A DNA stretch of 63,414 nt, filler included, from Reclinomonas americana ATCC 50394 (taxonomy: Eukaryota), in NCBI GenBank assembly GCA_048213135.1. It is 15 parts of 15 records of this genome, joined end to end, with 100 filler letters (N's around TTAATTAATTAA, not from the genome) between each part and the next. Parts side by side here need not be neighbours in the genome. Positions count along the whole stretch, not along the records: positions 38,975 to 49,465 come from AFZH01016837.1; positions 49,566 to 61,430 come from AFZH01016838.1; 13 more parts are not named here. The stretch is one strand, 5' to 3'. Shown here one piece after another: positions 45,601 to 50,173 of this stretch; positions within the stretch are counted from its first letter, which is position 1, and the number at the start of each line of letters is the position of its first letter. Under the pieces are notes generated by a model. That model did no database searches. It was not told the origin of the DNA and saw only the letters and a program-made list of their open reading frames with translations. The position numbers and the translations under genes are program-made.

Positions 45601-48600
45601 ACAGCGTGTCTGGGTGCCTGTCACCAAGTACCTCACGCCTCAACACCAGCACCTCTCGATACAGTCGATCGGCATCGGTGAGATTGCTGCTGTCCTGGAT
45701 GCAGATGGCGAGATTGTTCATGGACGACAGCGTGTCTGGGTGCCTGTCACCAAGCACCTCACGCCTCAACACTAACACCTCCCGATACAGTCGCTCGGCT
45801 GCGGCGTGATTGCCACTCTTAAAGATGCAGTTGGCGAGATTGCCCATGGACGACAGCGTGTCTGGATGCCTGTCACCAAGCACTTCACACCTCAACGCCA
45901 ACACCTCTCGATACAGTCGCTCGGCTTCCGTGAGATTGCCGTTCGCCTTGATGCAGATGGCGACATTGTTCATGGACATCAGTGTGTCCGGATGCTTGTC
46001 GCCAAGCACTTCACGCATCAACGCAAACTCCTCCCGATACAGTCGCTCAGCTTCGGTGAGATTGCCGCTCTCCTGGATGCAGGCAGCGAGATCGTGCATG
46101 GACCGCAGTGTGTCCGCATGCCTGTCACCAAGCACCTCACGCCTCAACACCAACACCTCTCGATACAGTCGCTCGGCTTCGACGAGATTGCCACTGTCCT
46201 CGATGCAGTCAGCGAGATTGTACACGGAATGCAGTGTGTCTGGATGCCTGTCACCAAGCACCTCACGCCTCAACCCCAACACCTCCCGATACAATCGCTC
46301 AGCTTCGACGAGATTGCCACCGTCCTCGATACAGATGGCGAGATTGTTCATGGACGACAGCGTGTCTGGGTGCCTGTCACCAAGCACCTCATGCCTAAGC
46401 CCCAACACCTCTCGATACAGCCGCTCGGCTTCGACTAGACGGCCAACACTCTGCAGACAGTTCGCGCGAAGGTGCACGAGGTCAGAGACTATGATCACAT
46501 CATCTTCTGGTTCAACAGTTGCCAGATGCACCTCCAGATAGTCCGCAGCATCACCAGCAAGGCGCACGCTTGTGAGCAATTTTGTCACGCACAGTGCTCT
46601 TCTGTGGTTCACATCTCGGTCCACTCCGTCACTGCTCTGTTCGCGAAGCCACGCAGCACACGCTACTGCAACATCCGCACTGAATTCGCTAACGGGGAGC
46701 CGATTCTCAGCAAACTCCGCCAATTTTGACACGCCGTTCAGTCGCATCCTTGTCACAGAAGGTGGCGTGTTGCTCTCGCCCCCTCCACGCTGCAACACCG
46801 GCAATAGCCCATTCCACAACAGCTGCAGACACGGACGAATGTCGCGCAGCATGACATCGTCGATACTGTACTCGTCAGCCCAAGCCAGTCCACACAGAAC
46901 GACGTCCGACACTGCGTCACGATAAAGACAGAGCTCTCTCTCACGTTCTCCCGATGTCAGCCACTCCATCACGATGTCGTGCACTCCGTACTCCACTCTC
47001 GATGGTGACACAGCAGATTGTTCTCCGCCCCTCACCACCGTTCGATACAGCGTGTCGCACGACTGTGACATCGTGCACTGCACCAACATTGACCGCCGAA
47101 GCTTGTCCAATGCCTGAACCACATCGCCGTCATCGTCACGAGGTTGATCGACTCTCCCTTCAGACGCAAGCAGTTGCAACCAATCCGGAGATGCTGGATT
47201 CGACTCACGTCCCACCAGCCGAACCATCAAAGCAACAGTCCGAGCCGTGACGTGTACTCGCATTTGCTGGAGCGCTGTGACCAAGAGCAGCACCTGCCGC
47301 ATCAGCGGCGTGCACTCAGCCAGATTCTTGCTCATTAGCTCATCAAGCGCCAGTACTCGCGTCTCAGCCAGACGTGCCTGCAACTCACTGCTGGCTAGCG
47401 TCTCCAACGACTGTCGTGCGAGCATCCTAAAAGCATCATTTTCCGTGAGTCCTTCGTCTGCACGGAGAGCAAAGCCCACACAAGAACAATCAACTCACCT
47501 CAAACAGAGAGCCACGCGGAACGCCTGTGGCCTCTCCACCGTCGCCGCCGTCACCTCAAGGCATATCTCCTCCGGTGCGTCAATCTGCTGCCGCACATAC
47601 TGCGCCACATCGTCGGCCTCCACATCGCCCACCGACATGTGAAGCACAACAGCAGAGCTCAACAAAGCTGAGCGTTGCAGTTCGTCGCCAACTCGCTTGA
47701 ACCGCGTCGTCACGAGCACAAGCGGGGCGACCATGAACGGGGAGCCTGCGTGAGAGCAGAAAACAAAACGGTTGGTGACTCGAGCAGGCAAATGTATGTA
47801 CACGCACTGCGAGAAAAGTTGCACACACAAGTACGCACAAGCGAGAAACCGTAGAACACATACAGTACCACGCGCAACTCATTGACAAAAGTGCAAGATG
47901 CACGTACCTGCACTGGCGTGTCCGCGAACACCTGTGACTCGCAAGACATCCAACACTTGCTTCCCCGTGCCGACATTGTCGAGCAACATCACGCCGCGGC
48001 TGTTCTTCATGAAGTGGCTGAGTCGATTGCGCATCATGTCCACATTGCTGTCCTTCTCCCACGACTCAATCTCCGCCAACAAATGTGCGTTGGATTGCAC
48101 AGATGTCATGGCACTGGCGAATCCTCGCAGTCCACTACAGAGCACCTCCGTCGTCTGCGTCGAGACAGAAAAAATCGAATCAGAAACAATGTGCACGCAT
48201 GACAGTCTTCATCCACTTCGACTCACCGATGTGAACTGGCTCTCATCAGCTGTGTGGCCACGCATGTCCGAGTACAGCGCCGAACCGCGCCACTTCTTTC
48301 GCTCCATCTCCGACACAATCAGCTCGGCCAGTGTCGTCTTCCCACTTCCACCCTCGCCAGAGAGCACAATTACTCCGGGTGTGGCATCTGGAGAGAACAA
48401 GCCACAAACGGGGGCATGTGAGCAACAAGAACCAAGAGAAGATGCGGCGCCTCATCTTCTCACCAGCCTCGCATTCCAACAATCGCTCCGCCAGTCGCTC
48501 AGCCTCCGCGACGCGGCTGGGGAATGGAAACCCATCCAACTGGTCCACGTTTCTGAACACGATTGCCCGGCTCACTGGTGTCGCAGCTGTCGCCAGACAC

Positions 48601-49302
48601 ACACAACACATGCCAAAATGAGTACGAATAAAGAGTAACAAAGGACAAGAACGCCGCACGCACAGAAACGGATGGCATCAATCTCTTTCTCGAATTCGCC
48701 CACATCTGGAATGCGTGCTTGTCGCAAAAGGCGCACCACCTTTCCTTCAGCAGCGCCGTCTCCAAGCAGGTCGCGCACCTGTGCGGCTGACAGATGCACA
48801 TCCGGACGATGCATGAGGGCATTTCGCACATTGCGCAGTTGATGCACCGCATCGCGCTGCACGTGCCACAGCAGGTGAACAACACAAAGTGACATAATAC
48901 AAAGAGACACAAGCCACACCTGCGTTGCGTCAGGGATCAGCTGGTGTACATCAACAGGAACAGCACTCGCATCCGGTGTCCAGTGCGCGTTCAGCAGAAC
49001 CGTGGTCAACCACGAAACATCAAACGCACTGCACGAGGGACAAGGGTCGCCCGCATCCAAGGCGCGCTGCCAGTCCTCCATGGCAGTTACCGCCGATACA
49101 GGGCACAACACGCGCTCAAACCCCGGCAACGTGGTGCTGTGCGCAACAATTAGTGAAGGAGGGTGAGTGAGAGAGTGAGTGATTGAGTGTGTGTGAGAGA
49201 GAGAGGGAGGGAGGGAGAGAGCCAACAAACATCGGCTGATGACAACCAGCTACCAAAGACGGAGCACAAAAAGTGACAGACACACAGAGACACAGGTGCG
49301 CA

Positions 49303-49363
<61 letters not shown>

Positions 49364-49655
49364 GACGAACGACGAACGAACGACGACGACGAGACGACGA
49401 CGACGGCGTCGACGACGACGAACGGAAGGAAGACGACGAACGAACGAACAACGAAGAAGAGTAGANNNNNNNNNNNNNNNNNNNNNNNNNNNNNNNNNNN
49501 NNNNNNNNNTTAATTAATTAANNNNNNNNNNNNNNNNNNNNNNNNNNNNNNNNNNNNNNNNNNNNGACCGAACGAACGACGACCGACGACGACGACCGAA
49601 CGAACGAACGACCGGAACGGACGACGACGAAACGAGAAGAGAGACGAGACGAGAC

Positions 49656-49722
<67 letters not shown>

Positions 49723-50173
49723 GGCGAGCACGGAAACGCGAACCAAAAGCAGCGAGAGACAGCGGCTGTCAGCAACGAGGAGAAGCCAGACGAACACAGA
49801 AAAGAGATGACATAGAAGAGAAAGATTCCTCATACACACACGCACGCACACACACAAACACAAGCACACACGACACACACAGGGCACTCACCGCTTGTCT
49901 CGTCTCTCTCCCCGCTTCGAACTCTTCATCCACTCCTTCATCAACTCCAATTTCCCCGCTGGCGATGCCTCCGTCTCTGCCGCACAGTTGCGCACGAATG
50001 CCGGCAGTTCACGCTCCACAAGAGCACGCAGAGCACGAGCAGCGACACCACACACAACTCGTGTGGCGCGCCAAAAGTTAGACCTGTGCGTGTGTGAGAA
50101 GAAGATAATGAGCACACTGCGACACCGCCTTGTGTGTTGAAGCACGCAACTCCTCGTCAGTGATAAGCGACAT
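42647..50173 (-). CDS. NLR-like STAND protein: HEPN - NB-ARC (AP-ATPase) - ~30x 42-aa TPR; in-frame TAG at 44758-44756 (truncated allele or possible pseudogene)
   Basis: Model complement(join(42647..47426,47499..47745,47908..48154,48227..48387,48464..48586,48664..48856,48920..49136,49892..50083,50151..50173)), all junctions in phase. HEPN EESNFWRATRVV...FDVSWL...LRNVRNALMH; Walker A GEGGSGKT; Walker B VMLLDNV; sensor-1 VLVTTR; GLPL-like ERPQAF; MHD-like YGVHDIV. Confidence 0.85.
42720..46470 (-). repeat. ~30 highly similar 126-bp coding TPR repeats (kinesin-light-chain/TPR_12-type)
   Basis: Consensus LAxCIxASGNLAEAERLYREVLxLxREVLGDRH(A/P)DTLxSMxx; 29 G(D/T)(R/K)H motifs counted. Confidence 0.95.

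Follow-up and report, generated by a model that had tools for sequence, protein, structure and literature searches.

A predicted nine-exon NLR-like gene with a probable HEPN-type head, an NB-ARC-like NTPase and a TPR array in a Reclinomonas americana assembly

Is the long TPR exon on the minus strand of this DNA a gene in itself, or the tail of a receptor whose effector and switch domains lie scattered in short exons upstream? The stretch analysed here (the window) is 63,414 nucleotides (nt) long, filler included, and comes from Reclinomonas americana ATCC 50394 (GCA_048213135.1); it joins 15 parts of 15 records end to end through 100-nt fillers, and parts side by side need not be neighbours in the genome. 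An earlier sequence-only reading had proposed that a nine-exon HEPN-NB-ARC head leads into the TPR exon. We conclude, with a probability of roughly 0.6, that the locus is a real intron-bearing eukaryotic NLR-like STAND gene running from 50173 to 44756 (ancestrally to 42647), with a probable HEPN-type head, an NB-ARC-type NTPase and a TPR array. Its parts are as follows.

Exon 1, 50151..50173, minus strand: 23 nt; ATG at 50173; its 3' end is A, followed by donor GTTGCG.
Exon 2, 49892..50083, minus strand: 192 nt; expected to form the first helices of the head; codon score +0.115, with both other frames negative.
Exon 3, 48920..49136, minus strand: 217 nt; middle of the head domain, with the conserved W..A.DA.DP..C..FD block.
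Exon 4, 48664..48856, minus strand: 193 nt; Rx4H motif RNALMH (48826-48809) and a conserved LGDG block.
Exon 5, 48464..48586, minus strand: 123 nt; linker between head and NTPase; no family match.
Exon 6, 48227..48387, minus strand: 161 nt; Walker A (P-loop) GEGGSGKTTLA, of which GEGGSGKT lies at 48358-48335.
Exon 7, 47908..48154, minus strand: 247 nt; Walker B-like LLDNV (47986-47972); no family match alone.
Exon 8, 47499..47745, minus strand: 247 nt; VLVTTR (47719-47702), then the helical part of the NTPase; no family match alone.
Exon 9, 44756..47426, minus strand: 2671 nt including TAG 44758-44756; helical, winged-helix-like region with VHD (within 46987-46970), then TPR_10/TPR_12 units.
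Continuation in the same frame past the TAG, 42647..44755, minus strand: 702 open codons; 17 more TPR units of 42 residues and a distinct C-terminal end.

The gene model is confirmed at the level of the sequence. A reading of the strand and a scripted rebuild both give nine exons and eight introns between 50173 and 44756, all with GT..AG ends, and the borders, the continuous frame and the intron that spans the gap at 49466 are as the sequence-only reading had described them. A scripted check likewise placed RNALMH, GEGGSGKT, LLDNV and VLVTTR exactly where they had been reported. The spliced frame is uninterrupted from the ATG to residue 1357 (1357 codons), and the ATG at 50173 is the first one downstream of an in-frame stop, 15 codons away. 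Introns 1 to 8 measure 67, 755, 63, 77, 76, 72, 162 and 72 nt and begin with GTTGCG, GTGAGT, GTGTGG, GTGCGT, GTGAGA, GTGAGT, GTACGT and GTGAGT, respectively; seven of the eight acceptors are CAG and one is TAG. The introns had been called in-phase, which holds in the sense that the frame is kept across all of them, but the phases themselves are mixed (2,2,0,1,1,0,1,2). With splicing as predicted, the HEPN-like head, the NTPase and the TPR array occupy one reading frame of one gene, in the tripartite architecture of NLR-like proteins, and the exon structure suggests that splicing follows this pattern in vivo.

Coding potential points to the same frame. A codon-usage model, for which only the two WD40 open reading frames (ORFs) of the window served as training set, scores the proposed frame positive in all nine exons (0.10 to 0.36 bits per codon) and the other two frames negative in 18 of 18 cases; by our arithmetic the chance of finding the best frame nine times over is about (1/3)^9. 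The introns themselves give a positive value in 7 of 24 frames, as stretches this short are expected to do. Retention of intron 1, 2, 4, 6, 7 or 8 would add an in-frame stop, and retention of intron 5 would shift the frame. Counting pairs at least 40 nt apart, each intron offers between 4 and 21 frame-compatible GT..AG pairs, the proposed one included, and at every intron the proposed pair has the most consensus-like donor; the exact junctions of the nine-exon model are predictions. A 250-codon plus-strand ORF at 47886-48638, considered as a rival gene, was rejected (codon score -0.05, no Pfam match).

The C-terminal part is the most readily identified. Exon 9 and the frame that follows it match TPR_12 at 1.9e-128 and 8e-184 (419 and 597 bits) and TPR_10 with 407 and 430 bits (9.7e-126 in exon 9), all above the Pfam cut-offs. 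The array consists of about 30 near-identical 42-residue units, marked by 29 anchors of which 27 spacings are 42 residues and one is 84.

Upstream of the repeats, the spliced protein presents, in order, GEGGSGKTTLA, LLDNV (residue 360), VLVTTR (395) and VHD (616-618). AP-ATPase/NB-ARC proteins are recognised by a GxGGxGKTTLA Walker A motif, an hhhhD(D/N)V Walker B motif, hhhTTR and an MHD-type motif after the winged helix. The motif order here fits that clade, with VHD in the place of MHD. The two neighbouring WD40 genes instead have a NACHT-type LLLDGYDEL, and their Pfam NACHT match lies above the cut-off (37.1 bits). In the present gene all Pfam scores of exon 6 fall under their cut-offs (nSTAND3 1.6e-5, NB-ARC 1.8e-4, NACHT 2.3e-4), the P-loop exon covering positions 18-44 of the NB-ARC profile with 21.3 bits against a cut-off of 23.5. 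Scanned exon by exon, the gene gave no NB-ARC (PF00931) match at cut-off over the whole domain. PADLOC and NCBIfam returned generic P-loop matches only, including AfsR at E 0.0016 (NCBIfam). AfsR is a regulator of the NB-ARC-TPR type. Searches of PDB sequences gave no match for exon 8, seven chance-level matches for exon 7 and 35 generic P-loop matches for the P-loop exon. The earlier assignment to NB-ARC therefore stands for the order of the motifs and fails for Pfam membership, where only the P-loop exon scores, and below cut-off; 'NB-ARC-like STAND NTPase' is a fair name. The overall order that had been proposed, an Rx4H head, then a P-loop NTPase with NB-ARC-type motifs, then TPR, is what the spliced frame contains.

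What, then, is the head? Its relatives lie in the same window, at the N-termini of two further genes.

WD1, 3746..7960, plus strand: head with RKALAH, NACHT (3.6e-9), pentapeptide repeats and WD40 repeats; one uninterrupted ORF.
WD2, 26673..30917, plus strand: architecture as in WD1.

Each has about 1400 codons (1407 and 1420) and about 13 WD40 repeats, and each is a single open ORF inside an otherwise intron-dense region. They lie 23 kb apart and, judged by their sequences, are recent duplicates, with 84.9% DNA identity over 3538 nt that include about 500 nt upstream of the ATG. The spliced head aligns with the N-termini of WD2 and WD1 in blastp at 53.1 and 51.2 bits (E 6e-11 and 3e-10; 64/219 and 61/218 identities), which bears out the proposed homology of the three heads. 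Identity is 28-29% in the BLAST alignments and 36% when the aligned HEPN columns are counted. Taken alone, exon 3 and exon 4 are both significant in local alignment: the score of exon 3 against the WD1 N-terminus is reached by 2 of 2000 shuffles, and that of exon 4 by none of 2000. The three copies have 40 invariant columns, among them the R and H of Rx4H, the W..A.DA.DP..C..FD block and LGDG. The motif reads RNALMH here (R155 and H160, with the polar Asn next to the Arg) and RKALAH in both WD40 genes. Beyond the head the likeness ends: blastp detects no similarity between this gene and the WD40 genes past 23 residues beyond the P-loop, and only WD1 and WD2 have a detected NACHT. In this respect the sequence-only reading holds: homologous heads sit on different classes of NTPase, so the head has been shuffled between chassis, and since two neighbouring genes carry the same head on a NACHT-pentapeptide-WD40 chassis, it may be regarded as a swappable effector module.

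Convergent but weak evidence indicates that this head, of about 200 residues encoded by exons 1-4, probably has the fold of the HEPN superfamily. RNALMH has the form given for the HEPN motif, Rx4-6H with a polar residue after the R (PMC3710099), and the same source describes R, H and that polar residue as contributing to catalysis. Pfam DUF4559 (PF15112) matches exon 4 over profile positions 147-200 of 305 (E 8.5e-4; 19.3 bits, cut-off 27) and, again sub-threshold, the frame running from exon 3 to exon 4 (E 1.3e-3); HEPN_Swt1 matches the motif region of WD1 under its cut-off (E 0.065). Neighbours in the ESM Atlas, which serve as leads only, include for this gene a DUF4559 cluster at 0.93 (11% of members), a HEPN_DZIP3 cluster at 0.93 (11%), a cluster at 0.90 that carries both HEPN_DZIP3 (38%) and DUF4559 (37%), and HEPN_Swt1 (39%) at 0.88. 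For the WD1 head, again as leads, they include HEPN_Swt1 (20%) at 0.93, DUF4559 at 0.90 and HEPN_DZIP3 at 0.89, and nine of its ten best family-bearing matches fall in one family or clan. Because one Atlas cluster carries both labels, the Pfam families DUF4559 and HEPN_DZIP3 seem to overlap. The head is most likely a divergent HEPN-type metal-independent ribonuclease (RNase) of the DZIP3/DUF4559-like group, and RNase activity would be expected of it on that account.

Several results weigh against the reading of the locus as an NLR-like gene of this composition, and they touch each of its parts. In the gene model, intron 3 (63 nt) is in frame, free of stops and positive in codon score (+0.38), and its retention would keep the frame; the case for its removal is therefore made solely by the GT..CAG ends and by the paralogues, whose alignment runs through this point without a gap. 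In the NTPase, exons 7 and 8 and the opening 320 residues of exon 9 have no Pfam family match, and PADLOC, NCBIfam and PDB sequences were likewise empty of informative matches for them; no score separates NB-ARC from other STAND clades, nSTAND3 in fact outscoring NB-ARC on the P-loop exon. The remaining points concern the nature of the head, the TAG in exon 9 and the link between exons 2 and 3, each of which gives rise to a rival explanation.

The alternative that survives best keeps the gene model and takes the head to be some other all-helical N-terminal module of NLR proteins, of the adaptor or pore-forming type, in which R-x4-H is fortuitous and for which DUF4559 is the nearest named family. 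No Pfam model of the HEPN clan reaches its cut-off on any piece, and HEPN_DZIP3 (PF18738) does not appear even at E <= 10, although the pieces were single exons or the exon 3-4 frame with 21 intron-encoded residues, which lowers sensitivity. The earlier label 'HEPN' thus holds for the conserved R/H motif and lacks a Pfam HEPN model at threshold, the best match, and the sole sub-threshold one for this head, being to DUF4559, a domain of unknown function. The Atlas recognition value of this head (2133) is under the mark of 2300, and a family or clan is common to just three of its ten best family-bearing matches. Two AlphaFold models were unusable as folds, with mean predicted local distance difference test scores (pLDDT) of 44.7 and 47.2, and a Foldseek search with the model of the WD1 head returned 285 matches with E <= 10, none of them at E <= 0.001, and brought up only long-helix look-alikes. 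Database searches were equally empty: phmmer with the exon 3-4 piece found none of 1,835,955,588 proteins at E <= 0.001 (the 21 intron-encoded residues in the query cost score), and word-index protein searches found no relative of the exon 3-4 frame (compared with longer proteins), of the first 320 residues of exon 9 or of the WD1 head. Two metagenome scans with head alignments gave 596 and 596 pattern stretches, and a prokaryote scan with the NACHT region of WD1, over one genome for each of 185,579 species, gave 74; tblastn confirmed none of them. A profile of the head had one chance match among PDB sequences (E 1.9).

Against a fortuitous motif stands its conservation, R and H being invariant across copies that are only 28-36% identical. 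The low-confidence AlphaFold models are all-helical and place Rx4H at the end of a long helix, and the HEPN motif sits at the end of a helix as described in PMC3710099. Three HEPN-type labels recur among the Atlas neighbours of both this gene and its paralogue, and DUF4559 itself shares one Atlas cluster with HEPN_DZIP3. A non-HEPN head is for these reasons unlikely, and we retain the HEPN-type assignment.

The second alternative treats the locus as a recently disabled pseudogene, a decaying member of an expanded NLR-like family with no functional receptor. The TAG at 44758-44756 lies in frame in TPR unit 13, where the sister units read CAG, and removes 17 of about 30 units, so the gene copy in this assembly may be impaired; the frame stays open for 702 codons beyond it, to a natural-looking, distinct C-terminal end at 42647. 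The failure of the word-index and phmmer searches to find database relatives would also suit a decaying gene. The TAG is, however, a single defect in about 6.2 kb of coding sequence; the gene has kept its start codon, its catalytic and NTPase motifs and all 16 splice sites, and near-identical 126-nt repeats make assembly or base-calling errors likely at this very place. Even if real, it would leave a product of 1357 residues with about 13 TPR units that could still work. The TAG could reflect a nonsense mutation of very recent date, an error in the near-identical repeat array, or the end of a truncated product. Two other accounts of it were rejected: that it is read as Gln, because the standard code leaves the WD40 ORFs (1407 and 1420 codons) and the remainder of this gene open, and no second TAG occurs in frame; and that an intron excises it, because the sole GT..AG pair seen to span it is about 26 nt apart, far under the 63-162 nt of other introns. 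A pseudogene is rather unlikely.

The third alternative concerns the 5' end, where the second intron holds the gap.

Intron 2, 49137..49891, minus strand: 755 nt as assembled; GTGAGT..CAG; holds the 100-nt scaffold gap 49466-49565.

The gap is composed of 44 N, the linker TTAATTAATTAA and 44 N. Since intron 2 spans it, 755 nt is the assembled length only, and the intron is at least that long. Exons 1-2 are on one contig and exons 3-9 on another, with this gap between them, which makes their link the weakest join of the model, and exons 1-2 might accordingly be foreign to the gene, the scaffold join being wrong or hiding exons and the true 5' end lying in unsequenced DNA or at a Met inside exon 3. 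The length of intron 2 (at least 755 nt, ten-fold its neighbours, against 63-162 nt in the other seven) would suit such an error, as would the inconsistent similarity of exon 2 to the paralogues: the alignment of exons 1 and 2 with WD2 is non-significant, its score being reached by 251 of 2000 shuffles. Yet the local alignment of exons 1 and 2 with WD1 residues 1-85 has a score reached by none of 2000 shuffles, and exon 2 closes with a short PAG..K.W match that is colinear. Intron 2 is frame-compatible and has a consensus GTGAGT donor and a CAG acceptor, the coding potential of exon 2 is confined to the required frame, and 93 residues encoded by exons 1-3 precede the W..A.DA block where the paralogues have about 85. 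On either side of the gap stand microsatellites of the same types, (CT)n and CGT-rich, and the scaffold join probably sits within one long low-complexity tract. Foreign exons are quite unlikely on this evidence, and exons 1-2 are probably joined to exons 3-9.

If the nine-exon gene is accepted, why should its head be split by introns when WD1 and WD2 carry the homologous domain without interruption? The contrast itself, pointed out in the sequence-only reading, is real. All eight introns fall within the first 1403 nt (the first third) of the coding sequence, which totals at least 4071 nt; by our arithmetic an even spread would give such 5' clustering with a probability of about 2e-4. Freedom from introns extends well beyond the HEPN region, to the entire 4.2-kb WD40 ORFs and to the repeat exon of this gene (at least 2.67 kb). 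Loss of introns, 3'-biased or mediated by complementary DNA (cDNA), or homogenisation of the repeat arrays accounts for the contrast no less well than a separate acquisition of HEPN would. The proposal that the WD40 genes gained HEPN through an RNA intermediate finds little to recommend it, as the whole WD40 ORFs are intron-free, and the HEPN copies, only 28-29% (BLAST) or 36% (aligned columns) identical, give no sign of recent transfer. Nor can this gene be called the older resident: the number of introns does not measure age, and no observation in the window dates either gene. The suggestion that it is the best candidate for an active RNase likewise finds no support, because R and H are present in all three copies and the premature TAG occurs only here, while the WD40 ORFs are intact.

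Upstream of the WD40 genes, the duplicated plus-strand blocks 3250-3745 and 26183-26672 hold a conserved ORF piece that ends in ...HLVVRLTLG, is ubiquitin-tail-like and has no Pfam match. The same blocks contain intron-like GT..CAG stretches, with CACAG just before the ATG, so the WD40 genes may have upstream exons or an intron in the 5' untranslated region and may not be entirely intron-free.

Elsewhere in the window, two adjacent minus-strand frames at 9229-11543 match DEAD_2 and HBB (E 3.6e-26, 1.6e-16 and 3.4e-20) and identify, on sequence grounds, an XPD/Rad3-type helicase gene that at least one intron interrupts. A 780-codon open frame at 15648-17990 on the minus strand (codon score +0.15, no Pfam family) is an unassigned gene or a large exon.

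The closest parallels are found in animals. Anantharaman et al. (2013, PMC3710099) describe fusions of the DZIP3/hRUL138 HEPN family to TPR, NACHT and other domains, and report lineage-specific expansions of DZIP3-type HEPN in a cnidarian, an oyster and a unicellular relative of animals. Coral NLRs are described as pairing NACHT with LRR or WD40 and NB-ARC with TPR, many having an N-terminal DZIP3-like HEPN (PMC10236652). The present gene resembles these proteins in its N-terminal helical Rx4-6H domain, STAND NTPase and TPR or WD40 repeats (PMC10236652, PMC3710099), and the window repeats within one genome the split reported for coral between NACHT with WD40 and NB-ARC-type with TPR (PMC10236652). 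It differs from them in that Pfam HEPN_DZIP3 misses the sequence, that no relatives were found among 1.84 billion proteins, that the host genome is intron-dense and protist-like rather than animal, and that three or four introns interrupt the head. DUF4559 is reported at the N-terminus of 45 of 99 NACHT ('NLRP') proteins of the clam Corbicula fluminea (PMC8298618); there, as in the reading proposed here, it is joined to NLR-type NTPases, and it is both the best Pfam match of exon 4 and a top Atlas neighbour (0.93). The match nonetheless stops at 19.3 bits, covers only about 55 of 305 profile positions, and concerns a family whose own function is unknown.

Bacterial defence proteins of the STAND/NACHT type offer a second comparison. 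HEPN-STAND-TPR proteins are listed for bacteria by Anantharaman et al. (PMC3710099), and bacterial NACHT proteins with HEPN effectors and pentapeptide repeats have been described (bioRxiv 10.1101/2022.07.19.500537). The shared plan would be an effector RNase, an NTPase switch and a repeat sensor in one polypeptide, the sensors reported in these sources including TPR, WD40 or pentapeptide repeats; pentapeptide and WD40 repeats also occur in the neighbouring paralogues. The likeness has limits, since the NACHT region of WD1 found no relative in 185,579 prokaryote species (one genome each), no PADLOC model matches past the P-loop, and this gene has spliceosomal introns. A full-text literature search for HEPN with NB-ARC and TPR or tetratricopeptide returned only PMC8298618 and bioRxiv 10.1101/2022.07.19.500537. 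The architecture has thus been published for animals and bacteria, and the present gene would be a new and very divergent HEPN-armed NLR-like receptor, its HEPN and NB-ARC labels being probable.

RNase L and Ire1, which have HEPN domains of the KEN type, show how such an RNase can be switched on by ligand-driven self-association. The present gene would differ in having a STAND NTPase where those proteins use a kinase/ankyrin activating module; the KEN domain is, moreover, circularly permuted, and no sequence similarity to it was detected.

By analogy with STAND/NLR proteins, we propose that the TPR array would keep the NTPase off, sense a ligand and then release the NTPase, and that nucleotide exchange would drive oligomerisation and bring the HEPN heads together. 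Paired Rx4H motifs might then form an active RNase, as in dimeric HEPN RNases, and this could cleave RNA, cellular or viral, with defence or cell death as the outcome. The immune role, like the HEPN fold and the RNase activity, is inferred.

A broader hypothesis, possible but doubtful at present, is that the heads form a lineage-restricted, very divergent HEPN family that current profiles miss, an interchangeable RNase warhead of a unicellular eukaryote mounted on two unrelated STAND chassis within 45 kb, with the 5' clustering of introns recording cDNA-mediated loss or repeat homogenisation. If this is true, the way in which coral and mollusc NLR repertoires swap effectors would extend beyond animals. 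Were the head an active HEPN RNase, the gene would be a compact protist example of RNase-armed NLR-like receptors, with one effector common to NACHT-WD40 and NB-ARC-like-TPR receptors in a single genome. An annotation based on ORFs would show the TPR exon only and miss the effector and the NTPase, because these lie in exons of 23-247 nt; censuses of NLRs in intron-dense protists would therefore undercount them. Such sharing of an effector would bear on the assembly of NLR repertoires by domain shuffling and on whether such repertoires predate animals.

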